DNA from: Candidatus Staskawiczbacteria bacterium
GTDB taxonomy: Bacteria > Patescibacteriota > Minisyncoccia > Minisyncoccales > Staskawiczbacteraceae
Length of the DNA: 64,000 nt
NCBI GenBank assembly: GCA_963778905.1
Contig: CAVZWH010000024.1
Coordinates: 12,498 to 76,497, forward strand
Direction: 5' to 3'
Every line of letters begins with the position of its first letter. Within the stretch, counting starts at the first letter, position 1. Positions 11,088 to 38,929 of the stretch are shown one piece after another. The translations under genes and the position numbers were made by a program. The notes below the pieces were generated by a model. That model searched no databases, was not told the origin of the DNA, and worked only from the letters and a program-made list of their open reading frames with translations.

Positions 11088-11094
11088 AGAAACA

Positions 11095-11130
11095 AAAAGC
11101 CCGCGACCAAGTCGCGGGCTTTTTGTTTTT
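11095..11130. terminator. bidirectional rho-independent terminator (serves giant gene on + and recR on -)
   Basis: agcccgcgac-caa-gtcgcgggct hairpin flanked by A-run upstream and TTTTTGTTTTT downstream. Confidence 0.75.
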
Positions 11131-23465: not shown

Positions 23466-25037
23466 ATGAAAAACACAATTTTCAAACAAATATTTCTTTT
23501 AACTATTTGTTTTTTGCTTCTTTCCGTTGGCACAGCTGTATTTGCTCAAACCGTATCGCAAATTCAGACAAATTCAGCAACAAACATATCCAGCTACCAA
23601 GCAACCTTAAACGGATATTCATCCGGAAGTTCTTATAATACATATGTTTATTTTCAGTGGGGAACAACAAATGGCTATGGCAGCCAAACAAATCAACAAA
23701 ATATAAACTCTGCCGGCTCGTTTATCCAAGTTATCGCAGGTTTATCCGCCAACACCACTTACCATTTTAGAGCAGTTGCGCAAAACAATTACGGAACAGT
23801 TTATGGAAATGACATGACTTTTTACACAAGCGGAACCGGCACAAACACAATAACAGCCAACGCCGGACCAGATTTGTATTTGGGTTCTGGGCAAGCGGCA
23901 ACTTTGCAGGGTTCGGGATACGATCCAAACGGATATTCAATAAATTATTATTGGACATGCAATGGCGGAACTTTATCAAATTACAATATTGCTCAGCCAA
24001 CTTACACAGCTCCCTACGCAATCAATGGCAGCAGCCAAACAACTTATACTTGCACGCTTACAGCTACAAATAGTTATGGAAGTTCAAATTCAGACAGCAT
24101 GATAGTTTATGTAAATTATAATAACAACAATAACAACGGATCTTTTTATGCGCAGACAAATTCAGCAACAAATGTTCAAAATAATCAAGCAACCTTAAAC
24201 GGATATGAAGCCGGCGGCGCAACTTACAATAATTATGTTTGGTTTCAATACGGAACTGACACAAATTATGGAAACAATACAAACCAGCAGACGTTAAATT
24301 ATTCCGGCTCGTTTACCCAAAACATTGCAAACCTTTCTTACAACACCACTTACCATTTTAGAGCAGTTGCAGAAAGCAGTGGTCAAACAGTTTATGGCCA
24401 GGATATGACTTTCAACAGCAACGGCTCAAATAATAATTATTATGGCAATGGATCTTTATCAATTACAAAGCAAGTTATAAATCTTTCTTCTGGAAACTTA
24501 GCTTGGCAGTCATCAGTAAACGCAAAACCTGGCGACGTATTAAGTTTTGCCATAACTTTGCAGGCAACTGGCGGCCAGGAAATTGACAATGTTTTTGTGC
24601 GCGACAATCTGCCCGCAGACCTAATTTACAAAGGAAATATGACCGTAAATGCTTCGCAAAATTATTCGGGAAACCCTGCGTCGGGAATTAACATCGGCAC
24701 AATTCCAGCTGGCGGAATAGAAGTTATTGCTTATCAGGCGCAAGTGGCTCCGGCAGCAAATTTCATTTATGGAACAACAACATTAAGCAACAATGCAACC
24801 ATTACCAGCACAGAAGCGGGAACGCAAACCGCCAGCGCATCAGTTTTTGTGAATAATTCGTTGGTTTACGGAGCAGCAACATCTGTTTCAACCGGCTTAA
24901 CCAACAACCCAATAACAGATTCATTTTTCTTGCCAATGATTTTAATTATTTTTGGCTCTTGGTTTTATTTTTCAGGAAACGTTTACAAATTTTCCGACTG
25001 GCTTGGGTCACGGTTAGGAATTGGAATAAAGTTTTAG
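23466..25037 (+). CDS. surface protein with two FN3-like domains and DUF11-like domain; C-terminal tail homologous to that of the giant protein at 7788-11087
   Basis: Signal peptide; two TNSATN...ATLNGY...TYHFRAVA repeats; DUF11-like ITKQVINLSSG...DNLPADLIY; C-terminus VYGAATSVSTGLTNNPITDSFFLPMILIIFGSWFYF. Confidence 0.7.
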   Translation: MKNTIFKQIFLLTICFLLLSVGTAVFAQTVSQIQTNSATNISSYQATLNGYSSGSSYNTYVYFQWGTTNGYGSQTNQQNINSAGSFIQVIAGLSANTTYHFRAVAQNNYGTVYGNDMTFYTSGTGTNTITANAGPDLYLGSGQAATLQGSGYDPNGYSINYYWTCNGGTLSNYNIAQPTYTAPYAINGSSQTTYTCTLTATNSYGSSNSDSMIVYVNYNNNNNNGSFYAQTNSATNVQNNQATLNGYEAGGATYNNYVWFQYGTDTNYGNNTNQQTLNYSGSFTQNIANLSYNTTYHFRAVAESSGQTVYGQDMTFNSNGSNNNYYGNGSLSITKQVINLSSGNLAWQSSVNAKPGDVLSFAITLQATGGQEIDNVFVRDNLPADLIYKGNMTVNASQNYSGNPASGINIGTIPAGGIEVIAYQAQVAPAANFIYGTTTLSNNATITSTEAGTQTASASVFVNNSLVYGAATSVSTGLTNNPITDSFFLPMILIIFGSWFYFSGNVYKFSDWLGSRLGIGIKF

Positions 25038-25238
25038 AAAGAAAAAAACGAGATGATTTCAAGGCGCAGCAAGGAGGTTGTATCCTCTGGATACGCCGAC
25101 GAAGCTGCAACGAAGAAATCGCTCGTTTTTTTCTTTCCCTTCGGGCGGGCGAATTAAGGCAATCTTCTTCGTTGCTTCGGAGCTCGCGTACCACAGAGGG
25201 TACAACTCGCTCCTCGCGCCTCGAAGATTGCCTTAATT
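25037..25238. ncRNA. candidate structured RNA / paired inverted-repeat element (two perfect 16-bp inverted repeats with GC-rich spacers)
   Basis: IR1 gaaagaaaaaaacgag (25037-25052) / ctcgtttttttctttc (25122-25137); IR2 aattaaggcaatcttc (25152-25167) / gaagattgccttaatt (25223-25238); inner hairpins gtacc-acagag-ggtac, cc-ttcg-gg; GC content far above genome background. Confidence 0.3.
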
Positions 25239-25304
25239 CGCTTCCGCTAAAATTATTCCAATTCCTAACCGTGACCCTGAAAATACATTTAATCAATAAA
25301 ACAA

Positions 25305-25335
25305 AAAAGAGTTATTAAATAACTCTTTTTTGTTT
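25305..25335. terminator. bidirectional rho-independent terminator
   Basis: aagagtta-ttaaa-taactctt hairpin with A-run before and TTTTTTGTTT after. Confidence 0.7.
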
Positions 25336-25362
25336 CTAAAAAATTTGATAATATAGATAAAT

Positions 25363-28278
25363 ATGCCATTAGATTTATCCAAATTAAATGAGGAGCAAAA
25401 AGAGGCTGTGCTTTACGACAAAGGCCCGCTTTTGATTGTTGCCGGAGCCGGAACCGGAAAAACAACTGTTATCACACAGAGAATTGTGAATTTAATTGAA
25501 AAAAAATTAGTGGCGCCAGAAGAAATTTTGGCTGTAACTTTTACCGAAAAAGCTGCTTTTGAAATGGAAGAAAGAGTGGATAAATTACTGGATTTTGGAT
25601 ATATTGATTTGTGGATTTCAACTTTTCATTCTTTTTGCGAAAGAGTTTTGCGCGAAAATGCTTTAGATATTGGCTTGCCGAGCGATTTCAAAATTTTAGA
25701 CCAAACTTCCGGCTGGCTTTTAGCCCGGCAAAATTTAGACAAGTTTGATCTAAAATATTACAAAGCATTGGGAAATCCCACAAAATTTATTCAGGCATTA
25801 ATTTCTCATTTTTCTCATTGCAAAGACCAGGAAGTTTATCCAGAAAATTATTTAGAATATGCCGACACCTTAAAAACAAGAGATGACGGTTTAGAAGACG
25901 GAGAAACAGAAAGAATTATGGAAGTCGCAAATGCATATCACGTTTATCAGCAAATTTTATTGGAAAACAGCGCATTGGATTTTGGAGATTTAATAAATTA
26001 TTGCCTAAAACTTTTCAAAAAACGCCCATTAATTCTAAAAAAATATCGTGAAAAATTTAAATATATTTTGGTTGACGAATTTCAGGATACAAACTGGTCG
26101 CAATATGAATTGATAAAATTGTTGGCGGAGCCTAAAAATAATTTAACAGTTTGCGCCGATGACGACCAGGCGATTTATCGCTGGAGAGGAGCTTCTTTTT
26201 CAAATATTGTAAAATTTCAGGAAGATTTTCCAAATGCAAAACAAATTTCTTTAATTAAAAATTATAGGTCTTCGCAAAACATTTTAGACAAGTCATATGA
26301 TTTTATAATACAAAATAATCCCGACAGATTGGAATTTAGAAACAAAATAAATAAAAAACTTGTGGCAAATACAAAAGAAGAGGGGATTGTTGAACATATT
26401 CACGAGAAAACCTTAGACCAGGAAGTTGGTCAAACCTTAAAAAAGATTTTAGAAATTATAAAGCGCGACAAAGAAGCAACTTACAATGATTTTGCAATTT
26501 TAGTAAGGGCAAACGATTCGGCAATTCCGTTTATTAAGGCATTAGAAAGGGCAAATTTACCTTATCAATTTTTAGCTTCGCGCGGATTATACTCAAAACC
26601 AGTAATTTTGGATATAATTTCTTATTTTAAGCTGTTAGACAATTATCACGAAGGAACTGCGGTTTACAGAGTTTTGAATTTGCCATTTTTGGGGATTTCA
26701 GAAACAGACATCGCAACAATTACTCAATTTTGCCGCAGAAAAACAATTTCACTTTTTGATGCGTTGCAGCAGTTATCAATAATTCCCGGAATTTCCGCCA
26801 AAACAAAAGAAAAAGTTGTTTTTGTGTTAAGCTTAATAAAAAAACACAGCGGGGATGCGCGAGAAAAAGGAGTTTCAGAAATTTTAATTGCATTTTTGGA
26901 GGATTCTGGATACTTAAAATATTTAATCAATAAAAATGAAATAGAAAAAATTGATTTGTTAAATCAGTTTTACAAAAAAATAAAAACTTTTGAAGAAGCA
27001 ACAATTGAACCGACTTTGAAAAATTTTATGGAGGAAATGAATTTGGAATTGGAATCTGGCGAAGAAGGAAAACTGGAATTTGACCCTGAAAAAGGTCCCG
27101 ATATGATAAAAGTTATGACAATTCACGGAGCAAAAGGTTTGGAATTTAAGTACGTATTTTTAGTAAATATGGTTGATAAAAGATTTCCAACCATTGAAAG
27201 AAAAGATCCAATTGAACTGCCCGATGAGCTAATAAAAGATATAAAACCAAAAGGAGATGTTCATTTGCAGGAAGAGAGGCGGCTTTGTTATGTGGCAATG
27301 ACCAGAGCAAAAAAAGAACTCTATTTTACTTCAGCTGACGATTACGGCGGACAAAGAAAGAAAAAAATATCAAGATTTTTGTCAGAAATGAATTATAAAT
27401 CAGCTGACGAAAGTAAACCAAGTGAAAATGGATTATTAGCCGAAAAATTAAATCCAGCCGAAAGATTAAAGAAAAAAACAGAGCCGCAATATCTGCCTCA
27501 ACATTTTTCTTATTCCCAATTGGCTGCATTTGAAAAATGTCCGCTGCAATATAAATTTGGATTTATTTTGAAAGTGCCGACCCGAGGCAAAGCAGTTTTC
27601 TCTTTTGGAAAAACAATGCACAATACTTTGTACGAATTTTTGAAATTGAGTAATGAAGATAAAAAATCAGCGCAAGAAAATTTATTTGGAGAAAAAACAG
27701 CAAAAAACAGCAATAAAAAAAGTAAAAATTTTGACGAATTAACAAAATTATACGAAAAAAACTGGATTGATGAATGGTACGAAAATCAAAAACAAAAAGA
27801 TGATTATTATAAGTTGGGCAAAAGAATAATAAAGGAATTTTACAGCCAGTTTGAGAAAAATCCGCCAAAAATTTTGAAAATTAATGGAAGCCTGGCTTTA
27901 GAAATGCCGTTTAACTTAAAAATTGGCGAGCACACATTGTTTGGAGTTATTGACAGAATTGATGAGGAAAAAAACGGAGTTTTTATTATTGATTACAAAA
28001 CCGGCTCGTCAAAAGAAAAACCGGAAAAAGAACAGCTTTTAATTTACCAAATAGCAGCCCAGGAAGTTTTGCACTTAAAGCCTAAACAGCTTGCGTATTA
28101 TTATTTAGAAGACGGAAAATTTGCTTCATTTTTAGGTTCAGAAAGCGATTTGCAAAAACAAAAAGAAAAAATAATTGAGGAAATTGAGAAAATAAAAAAC
28201 AGCGAATTTGAGCCAACGCCCGGCTGGCAGTGCCAGTACTGCGATTTCAAAGACATCTGCGACTTTGCTCAACGCTAA
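25363..28278 (+). CDS. UvrD/PcrA-family ATP-dependent DNA helicase fused to C-terminal PD-(D/E)xK (RecB/Cas4-like) nuclease domain with 4-Cys cluster
   Basis: LIVAGAGTGKTT Walker A, DEFQDTN, helicase motifs; C-terminal VIDYKTG nuclease motif and C...CQYCDFKDIC cysteine cluster. Confidence 0.8.
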   Translation: MPLDLSKLNEEQKEAVLYDKGPLLIVAGAGTGKTTVITQRIVNLIEKKLVAPEEILAVTFTEKAAFEMEERVDKLLDFGYIDLWISTFHSFCERVLRENALDIGLPSDFKILDQTSGWLLARQNLDKFDLKYYKALGNPTKFIQALISHFSHCKDQEVYPENYLEYADTLKTRDDGLEDGETERIMEVANAYHVYQQILLENSALDFGDLINYCLKLFKKRPLILKKYREKFKYILVDEFQDTNWSQYELIKLLAEPKNNLTVCADDDQAIYRWRGASFSNIVKFQEDFPNAKQISLIKNYRSSQNILDKSYDFIIQNNPDRLEFRNKINKKLVANTKEEGIVEHIHEKTLDQEVGQTLKKILEIIKRDKEATYNDFAILVRANDSAIPFIKALERANLPYQFLASRGLYSKPVILDIISYFKLLDNYHEGTAVYRVLNLPFLGISETDIATITQFCRRKTISLFDALQQLSIIPGISAKTKEKVVFVLSLIKKHSGDAREKGVSEILIAFLEDSGYLKYLINKNEIEKIDLLNQFYKKIKTFEEATIEPTLKNFMEEMNLELESGEEGKLEFDPEKGPDMIKVMTIHGAKGLEFKYVFLVNMVDKRFPTIERKDPIELPDELIKDIKPKGDVHLQEERRLCYVAMTRAKKELYFTSADDYGGQRKKKISRFLSEMNYKSADESKPSENGLLAEKLNPAERLKKKTEPQYLPQHFSYSQLAAFEKCPLQYKFGFILKVPTRGKAVFSFGKTMHNTLYEFLKLSNEDKKSAQENLFGEKTAKNSNKKSKNFDELTKLYEKNWIDEWYENQKQKDDYYKLGKRIIKEFYSQFEKNPPKILKINGSLALEMPFNLKIGEHTLFGVIDRIDEEKNGVFIIDYKTGSSKEKPEKEQLLIYQIAAQEVLHLKPKQLAYYYLEDGKFASFLGSESDLQKQKEKIIEEIEKIKNSEFEPTPGWQCQYCDFKDICDFAQR

Positions 28279-38803: not shown

Positions 38804-38820
38804 AAATTATCACAAAATCA

Positions 38821-38847
38821 AAAAACCGGGCTTTACCCGGTTTTTTG
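38821..38847 (+). terminator. rho-independent terminator
   Basis: accgggc-ttt-acccggt hairpin + TTTTTTG. Confidence 0.75.
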
Positions 38848-38929
38848 ATTAAACGCTTGACATGCGTCTGCATTTATAATATAATAGATTATCTAATAGT
38901 TAGGTAATCAAACTATTAAACAATCATCT

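Follow-up and report, generated by a model that had tools for sequence, protein, structure and literature searches.

A dispersed family of palindromic three-helix elements, probably mobile DNA, with a copy at a gene end of Candidatus Staskawiczbacteria

Introduction

Correia elements of Neisseria are transposable elements of the miniature inverted-repeat type (MITEs) of 100-155 bp that are co-transcribed with genes and carry conserved terminal repeats and a TA duplication. In parvoviruses such as adeno-associated virus (AAV), a T-shaped inverted terminal repeat (ITR) forms the end of a linear single-stranded DNA virus and is processed by a Rep (HUH) protein. Mitochondrial double-hairpin elements are G+C-rich selfish insertions into spacers or gene ends of compact, AT-rich genomes. 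Three papers (PMC7218506, PMC3787672, PMC2670323) mention double-hairpin elements as well as GC-rich palindromic clusters from the mitochondrial genomes of fungi and algae. Small bacterial repeats of the REP/REPIN type (REP, repetitive extragenic palindromic) are mobilized by RAYT (PMC3184786), and REPs tagged with GTAG or CGTC have been described (PMC3733652). Here, we analyze a palindromic element of 273 nt (25005-25277) in a stretch of 64,000 nt from contig CAVZWH010000024.1 of a Candidatus Staskawiczbacteria bacterium, which belongs to the candidate phyla radiation (CPR; Patescibacteria). This whole stretch is referred to as the window.

The element is an insertion into a surface-protein gene at its 3' end. 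It is a member of a dispersed family, which is present in several copies in some genomes. With modest confidence, we regard it as one copy of a previously undescribed family of non-autonomous, structure-recognized, palindromic mobile DNA elements of CPR bacteria. Literature on CPR repeats, MITEs and tRNA-like palindromes was searched, and no description of the family was found there.

Results

Structure of the element in the window

In the element, a helix on the outside (P1) and two long hairpins (H1 and H2) together form a Y-shaped three-way junction. Its parts are as follows:

25005-25029, plus strand: 5' arm of the outer helix P1 (GGGTCACGGTTAGGAATTGGAATAA); perfect 25-bp repeat with 25253-25277; codes for the C-terminal GSRLGIGI of the upstream protein
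25032-25036, plus strand: P1b (TTTTA), inner extension of P1 in the centroid fold; pairs with 25248-25252 past a 2-nt bulge, AG, at 25030-25031
25037-25137, plus strand: hairpin H1; 16-bp A/T-tract stem, second stem GATTTC/GAAATC, conserved imperfect middle TTCAAGGCGC ... GCAACGAAGAA, variable tip at 25080-25094
25138-25144, plus strand: linker between H1 and H2 (CCTTCGG; possible C-UUCG-G mini-hairpin); block CCC(T/G)TCGGGCGG conserved in alignment A3 (see below)
25145-25247, plus strand: hairpin H2; base GCGG/CCGC, 19-bp stem, middle equal to the reverse complement of the H1 middle, tip GTACC-ACAGAG-GGTAC at 25189-25204
25248-25277, plus strand: 3' strand of P1b (25248-25252) and 3' arm of P1 (25253-25277; TTATTCCAATTCCTAACCGTGACCC); pairs with P1b and the P1 5' arm

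A preliminary description of this stretch had reported two perfect 16-bp inverted repeats directly after the surface-protein gene, with nested hairpins and a composition unlike that of the flanking DNA. The first repeat, which closes H1, was found exactly as reported (25037-25052 / 25122-25137). The second, placed at 25152-25238, is likewise perfect and has a real extent of 19 bp (25149-25167 / 25223-25241), forming the stem of H2. Not in that description was the enclosing perfect 25-bp inverted repeat (25005-25029 / 25253-25277), which flanks 223 bp; what had been proposed as a tandem pair of MITE-like hairpins is a single unit closed by this third repeat. The small nested hairpins can be read directly from the sequence (GTATCC-TCT-GGATAC, GTACC-ACAGAG-GGTAC, CC-TTCG-GG and GCAGC/GCTGC), and the difference in composition was borne out, with a G+C content of ~0.47-0.48 in the element (0.62 in the interior of H2) compared with 0.30-0.39 in the AT-rich flanks. 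Within the 64-kb window, each arm matches its own partner alone (chance expectation, 0.00-0.39), and neither the window nor 0.9 Mb of related genomes contains a further nested perfect repeat.

Both strands are predicted to fold with high stability. The plus strand reached -165 kcal/mol compared with -83 ± 5 kcal/mol in dinucleotide shuffles (z ~ -15.6), and the minus strand reached -167 kcal/mol compared with about -85 ± 5 kcal/mol in shuffles (z ~ -15.2); for either strand, none of 100 shuffles attained the observed value. An independent Logan assembly of run ERR11523660 repeats the left part of the element up to 25102 (L183) and the right part from 25213 (L005). That both of these contigs break within the element could point to an assembly artefact, and a chance palindrome or an elaborate terminator might be considered as well. 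We give next to no credence to any of these, given the distance from the shuffled sequences, the recovery of both halves in the second assembly and the separate terminator of the gene downstream at 25299-25335; the 64 distinct relatives from many unrelated samples described below refute them.

Insertion at the end of the surface-protein gene

The left arm of P1 falls within the coding sequence of the upstream gene, and the stop codon TAG (25035-25037) lies at the junction of P1 and H1. Two features frame the insertion:

23466-25037, plus strand: host gene, coding for a secreted surface protein of 523 aa that has a PKD domain and is anchored in the membrane at its C-terminus; last ~10 codons and stop codon derived from the element
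25299-25335, plus strand: the surface-protein gene's own intrinsic terminator, bidirectional; 18-bp perfect palindrome between A and T tracts; same position in L008; outside the element

The downstream gene encodes a housekeeping UvrD plus PD-(D/E)XK helicase-nuclease, which is also present in relatives that lack the element and whose homologues place the genome in Candidatus Staskawiczbacteria. In the closest sequenced relative (L006, the same as L008; helicase 90% identical), the gene order is the same and the site is empty: the junction reads ...GACTGGCTTGG|CGAAAAAATAAAATAG and is followed by the terminator and the helicase gene. As the closest relative has an empty site, the event is assigned to the lineage of the window. 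The surface proteins of relatives end in short tails that are basic after DWL (...DWLGEKIK in L008, ...DWLKLRRGQK and ...DWLKRIKQRA in others, each followed by the stop codon). In the window, the tail reads DWLGSRLGIGIKF before the stop codon, and GSRLGIGIKF stands in for the short basic tail. Judged from these sequences, the comparison establishes the window copy as an insertion after GACTGGCTTGG in this lineage, replacing the tail and the stop codon. The sequences at the empty site are too diverged for base-exact placing of the junction, and no target duplication is visible. We also considered that P1 is made anew from the target at each insertion and rejected this, since its left arm is absent at the empty site of L008 and P1 is no more variable between copies than the H2 stem and less variable than the hairpin tips.

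The intrinsic terminator that the preliminary description had placed at 25305-25335 is real. It is the gene's own, however, lies outside the element, which ends ~20 nt upstream of it, and is orthologous to a clear terminator in L008; owing to the AT-rich stem, it escaped a simple terminator scan. The element itself was therefore rejected as an intrinsic terminator, the gene having a separate one and members of the family lacking a consistent terminator context. Three terminators of the window (11090-11128, 38816-38850 and 25299-25335) share a bidirectional design of perfect palindromes with symmetric A/T tracts.

A conserved syntenic RNA upstream of the helicase gene was rejected as well, as 80 loci syntenic for the helicase contain no copy and the site is empty in the closest relative. 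In two further relatives (L007:4580-5001 and L011; helicase 84-85% identical), the spacer before the helicase gene is ~420 nt long and holds a small conserved open reading frame (ORF; MSRKASRSKKKEKKHGPH...) that is unrelated to the element. Two helicase homologues (P0066 and P0083) are ~360 aa longer and match PF14890, which we take to be an intein-splicing domain; this suggests that some CPR genomes have an intein-containing version of the UvrD/PD-(D/E)XK helicase.

Retrieval and distribution of the family

Long stop-free frames run along both strands of the element, and their translations were used as protein-database queries. Such searches can find relatives because gene callers sometimes call ORFs over elements of this kind. 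They returned P0121 first, then P0122-P0128 and finally 21 clusters by profile; P0124 was rejected as a member, being a spurious match to a repeat protein. For retrieval at the DNA level, metagenomes were scanned for the exact invariant 20-mer of H1. This 20-nt core was found in 89 metagenome stretches with 96 instances, which comprise 64 distinct full-length copies from many unrelated samples, and a family profile (nhmmer) covers 182 loci. A protein-coding function was rejected: the 116- and 119-aa ORFs are by-products of the stop-free palindrome, and from the unconserved frame across the alignment and the scattered ORF starts we conclude that no protein is encoded.

The three-helix element occurs in unrelated contexts. 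Copies adjoin prfA (L088), lie between an M50 peptidase gene and rpsL (L091), follow RuvC (L090) or an amidase gene near tRNA-Ile (L093), or are located near a gene for a penicillin-binding protein and dnaN/dnaA (L089), and one contig of 135 kb holds two different copies. Many copies sit at contig ends and truncate the contigs; family members break metagenome assemblies, and they also rewrite gene ends and sit inside operons. Gene content, together with the window itself, points to CPR bacteria as the hosts of the metagenomic copies. The family was absent from viral contigs and, by BLAST, from phage and plasmid records. A first guess at the core (AGGCGC..GTTGTAYCCTCTG) had given four matches in viral contigs, all of which were attributed to chance, their surroundings being dissimilar.

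Rfam 15 gave no match at gathering score in the window, with nothing but junk at E values up to 10 for 24700-25600, and nothing on eight other family members. Exact scans with 20-mers of the arms found no match in 596 Gb of species-representative GTDB genomes and none in JGI metagenomes. Since the arms are also unique in the window, they were rejected as a repeat family; what the copies share is the interior and the fold, not the arms. The preliminary description had named arms not repeated elsewhere, along with a lack of transcript and conservation, as what would refute its call. The arms are indeed unique, yet the family exists, and arm uniqueness would mislead as a test because copies have interior and fold in common.

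Several individual loci deserve mention. At the orthologous loci L100, L107 and L115, the element lies ~40 nt from a left-flank sequence (e.g., CCCAAGGCATCCGCCATTCGC in L107 and L115) that is presumably the reverse complement of the 23S rRNA 5' end; these copies would then lie antisense in an rRNA operon spacer. The members in L120, L122, L164, L158 and L173 are internally deleted or rearranged and have kept no more than the outer helix with portions of H1 and H2, a sign that old copies decay. The 9-mer GACTGGCTT (codons D-W-L) immediately precedes two independent copies that lie in unrelated genes, one in L126 (2270-2290) and one in the window (24996-25006). The coincidence may point to a preferred target; its probability by chance was estimated at ~0.04. 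In L147 (100-470), a hairpin-forming sequence of 24 nt, GGCGAGAGTAG[G/A]TAGCTCTCTT[A/G]C, stands on both sides of the element, at a distance of 61 nt on the left and 3 nt on the right; the one other copy with a long flanking direct repeat is that in L093. Other long perfect inverted repeats of CPR and archaeal contigs (L061:10068-10199, L073:5807-5905, L055:963-1032 and L078:12542-12718) have arms of 19-32 nt and loops of 32-135 nt and are unrelated to the family in sequence; the hairpin in L061 contains a tandem duplication.

Conservation and covariation

Alignment A3 comprises 42 family members. Their length is ~265-285 bp, P1 measures 23-31 bp in most of the 64 copies, and GAGATGATTTCAAGGC in H1 is invariant in all 42 aligned members. 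Conserved blocks are AGAA..AAAAAAYGAGATGATTTCAAGGC; AACGNAGAAATC; TTCC-C(TTCG)GGGCGG; TCCTCGCGCCTYGAA; and CCGCTMAA. Mean pairwise identity differs strongly between the parts:

H1 stem and middle: 0.78-0.89
H2 middle: 0.69-0.81
P1: 0.57
H2 stem: 0.57-0.63
hairpin tips: 0.40-0.47

With RNAalifold, the alignment yields all three helices (P1, H1 and H2), and double compensatory changes occur in 46 of 64 pairs. In P1, where columns 8-31 pair with 280-303, such changes were observed in 23 of 24 pairs. Paired cells amount to 93.9% compared with 79.6% in shuffles and 33-53% in slid controls, and double-change cells number 371 compared with 92; no measure was reached by any of 500 shuffles. Between the window copy and that in L093, for instance, 9 of the 25 positions of P1 are changed in either arm, and each P1 is still perfectly complementary. 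P1b reads TTTAG/CTAAA in some members and TTGAG/CTCAA in others. These data show that the pairing of the helices is conserved while their sequence is free, and that internal motifs are conserved.

The consensus of the H2 middle matches the reverse complement of the H1 middle with a score of 71, compared with 21 ± 6 for shuffles and 17 for the direct orientation. Because of this relationship, every copy matches the family profile over its full length on the opposite strand too. H1 and H2 are thus mutually complementary (88%). Their pairing does not covary beyond shuffles (142 of 500) and is therefore not a selected helix, so that a long-range H1-H2 helix or an alternative rod fold was rejected.

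Folding at the DNA or RNA level

In helices that are selected in RNA, G·U mismatches far exceed A·C mismatches. In contrast, P1 contains 37 of each (33 and 35 in another count), and H2 contains 24 of each when one invariant G·U, probably no real pair, is set aside. Since the mismatches are strand-symmetric and H2 is an inverted copy of the H1 core, a DNA-level reading is favored over a one-strand RNA. Strand and dyad symmetry are expected if both DNA strands fold equivalently, either as a cruciform or as single strands, or if the arms are homogenized at the DNA level. A DNA-level element and a functional RNA are not mutually exclusive.

As a palindromic mobile DNA element, the family would work as follows. 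The two DNA strands would fold into near-equivalent structures with dyad pseudo-symmetry, H2 bearing the inverted imperfect-helix motif of H1. Recognition may rely on this folded shape, be it an extruded cruciform or single-stranded DNA during replication, together with the conserved motifs of H1 and H2, and an enzyme supplied in trans would cut at a fixed distance for which P1 is the measure. Arm-to-arm correction at the DNA level may keep the stems perfect, a candidate for which is template switching at quasi-palindromes (PMC8794818, PMC8604942), a process that perfects inverted-repeat arms and can yield "compensatory" double changes in a single event (PMC8794818, PMC8604942, PMC5941160). 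In the window, the insertion put a very stable structure into the 3' untranslated region (UTR) upstream of the gene's terminator, and any effect on expression would be a by-product.

Several observations weigh against this reading. The filled and empty states of a site are documented for one pair, and the sample is biased toward copies with a conserved H1, as retrieval was seeded on the exact H1 20-mer. No transposase, recombinase or reverse transcriptase gene stands beside any of the copies seen, and no longer partner element or autonomous insertion sequence was found among the 182 profile loci. The ends of 40 of the 42 aligned copies are free of abutting direct repeats, no target-site duplication was definable, and unlike in classical MITEs the terminal repeats differ between copies (P1 identity of 0.57, below that of the interior). 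Moreover, mismatches in H1 are not symmetric (24 G·U vs. 9 A·C), the element often lies inside operons, and where an upstream ORF lies within 100 nt, the nearest one runs in the direction of the element in 18 cases and against it in 4.

The last of these points fit a structured RNA that acts as such, a reading we consider possible, if clearly the less probable one. It could be a stable non-coding RNA processed from read-through transcripts or a cis-acting 3'-UTR or intercistronic element that is cut in its long helices in the manner of RNase III; the tRNA-like outer 12 bp of P1 (see below) could serve as a processing signal of the RNase P or RNase Z type, and the DNA copies would have spread as a consequence or through an RNA intermediate. 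The very strong covariation in three helices, the conserved junctions and internal loops, the G+C-rich core within an AT-rich genome and the linker, which is mostly C-UUCG-G, would all suit an RNA. The window copy should be transcribed, as it lies between a stop codon and a terminator. Downstream ORFs are co-directional in 17 cases and opposite in 7, members often precede the next co-directional gene by 4-50 nt, and for 9 of the 42 the end of the upstream ORF falls within the element, which is also the case in the window. This orientation bias may equally be attributed to the direction of replication, with which genes are mostly co-oriented. Against an RNA stand the equal mismatch counts in P1 and H2, unlike those of known RNA helices, and the fact that H2 preserves a complementary version of the H1 motif although the two do not pair, which is hard to explain for a single-strand RNA. 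In addition, tip loops in A3 show by eye no obvious excess of GNRA or UNCG tetraloops, the copies have no promoter of their own and no consistent terminator beside them, Rfam holds no relative, and the element is dispensable in the close relative L008. The novel small RNA among the earlier proposals thus retains the lack of an Rfam match, the covariation and the co-orientation with upstream genes in its favor, while the strand-symmetric mismatches and the dyad symmetry speak against it.

Resemblance to tRNA 3' ends

About half of the copies have a P1 3' arm of the type ..GTTCGAATCCCGCACCCCTA, with the complement as 5' arm. This tRNA-like arm corresponds to the T-loop and the 3' strands of the T-stem and acceptor stem (positions 53-73) and stops at the end of the tRNA, which is also compatible with an RNA function. 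The 3' arm in the window has diverged from this (TTCCAATTCCTAACCGTGACCC). A tRNA gene is found within ~60 nt of the element in three of 42 copies. In L093, the 3' half of tRNA-Ile is duplicated, and the element is located within the duplicate, precisely where the T-arm has its 5' edge. In L168, a fragment of T-arm and acceptor stem follows 3 nt after the element, and in L153 a tRNA-Ser gene, the 3' end of which resembles the element arm, begins 2 nt after it. ARAGORN detected no tRNA or tmRNA overlapping any element. An interrupted tRNA gene or tRNA intron was rejected, as in silico excision, whether the right arm was kept or not, never yields a tRNA. The likeness may reflect an origin from tRNA 3' ends, a target preference for them or their mimicry.

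Some tRNA genes near these loci have unusual surroundings. On the minus strand of L093 (10030-10440), a partial second copy of the 3' half of tRNA-Ile, from the 3' side of the anticodon stem to CCA, lies 45 nt past the gene and looks like the scar of an integrated element. The same tRNA-Ile (L093:10363-10460, minus strand) is flanked by a perfectly complementary leader and trailer of ~14 nt including CCA, and a tRNA in L065 (12918-13025; probably Gln, by eye) is flanked by a perfectly complementary leader and trailer of 26 nt that extend the acceptor stem. Such arrangements suggest an unusual processing of pre-tRNA via a long helix.

The resemblance of the P1 arms to the block from T-loop to 3' end that is used by tRNA-targeting integrases, the tRNA associations in L093, L168 and L153, and the perfect 25-bp inverted repeat around 223 bp could indicate a site of DNA rearrangement, that is, an invertible segment or a recombination site between two inverted pseudo-att sites. 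We regard this as improbable. Orthologous copies have a single orientation without any flip or flop seen, and the neighborhoods seen contain no recombinase gene, on which grounds an inverton was rejected. As the arm sequences differ, one sequence-specific integrase cannot serve all copies; inversion would give the upstream protein a similar short tail, and, as stated, excision in silico never restores a tRNA. More improbable still is a retro-element type of RNA, either retron-like (msr/msd) or a tRNA-primed cDNA element, with the outer repeat as a1/a2 or as primer-binding site. An outer duplex with internal hairpins is compatible with the topology of retron non-coding RNAs, and the P1 5' arm is complementary to the tRNA-like 3' end. 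No copy seen has a reverse transcriptase gene beside it, however, the complement of CCA occurs at no fixed place, and the mismatch spectrum is strand-symmetric.

For a mobile DNA element, the ends may be set by shape and not by sequence. We propose, tentatively and as a rather unlikely possibility, that an enzyme that is dimeric and structure-specific, or else the tRNA-processing or tRNA-integrase machinery of the host, reads the C2-symmetric Y or cruciform fold and cuts at a ruler distance, which would be a mode of transposition or propagation as yet undescribed in bacteria. In this fold, both strands would display the same conserved hairpin motif, and either 3' terminus would mimic the 3' end of a tRNA.

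Discussion

The genomes of CPR bacteria are tiny and streamlined, with few recognized mobile elements or non-coding RNAs, and the family described here comprises at least 64 distinct copies. If it acts at the DNA level, it points to a structure-specific mobilization system and a tRNA-related origin or target; if it acts at the RNA level, it represents a new class of large structured RNA. Either way, it provides a marker of strain variation, and it gives rise to misassemblies and to spurious "hypothetical proteins" in the genomes of CPR bacteria.

Among the candidates named in the preliminary description, a MITE-like element comes closest, in that the window copy is a lineage-specific insertion of a dispersed, multi-copy family. 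As in classical MITEs, terminal inverted repeats are present (25 bp and perfect in the window), and the element is small, non-coding, multi-copy and insertion-polymorphic (empty site in L006/L008). Correia elements share with it the small size, the lack of coding capacity, the long terminal inverted repeats, the multi-copy state and the location at gene ends or between genes, and they too can supply stop codons and long double-stranded RNA stems in mRNAs. Unlike in Correia elements, the terminal repeats of the family vary between copies while co-varying within a copy, the interior has two conserved hairpins, and neither a target duplication nor a parent insertion sequence was detected.

REPs and REPINs are likewise palindromic, non-autonomous and intergenic, and REPs are thought to be read as folded single-stranded DNA by an enzyme encoded elsewhere. 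However, they measure 20-40 nt and carry a GTAG or CGTC tag, whereas the family has ~270 nt and three helices; no such tag was found at the ends or in the conserved blocks of A3. Double-hairpin elements of mitochondria resemble the family as G+C-rich hairpin insertions at or inside gene ends of AT-rich genomes, but they are much shorter and organellar, have no enclosing third helix and show no sequence relationship. The parvovirus/AAV ITR shares the outer stem around two internal hairpins and is read as folded DNA by a structure-specific enzyme; the present element, in contrast, is an internal chromosomal insertion that is roughly double in size, has no Rep gene in its vicinity and finds no match among viral contigs. 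Quasi-palindrome correction would account for the perfect stems and the strand-symmetric mismatches; it explains the upkeep of the stems but not the origin of the family, its spread or its conserved internal motifs.

Two further known types were considered and rejected. An element derived from IS200/IS605 does not agree with the long terminal inverted repeats and the unconserved bases to the left of the element. Integron attC sites are 57-141 bp long, have R and L boxes and occur in cassette arrays, whereas the family members are ~270 bp long, have variable outer ends and are solitary, with no integrase seen. Compared with all of these systems, the family is distinct by terminal repeats that are free in sequence but co-vary, a fixed length, an inverted pair of conserved hairpin motifs and tRNA-like termini.

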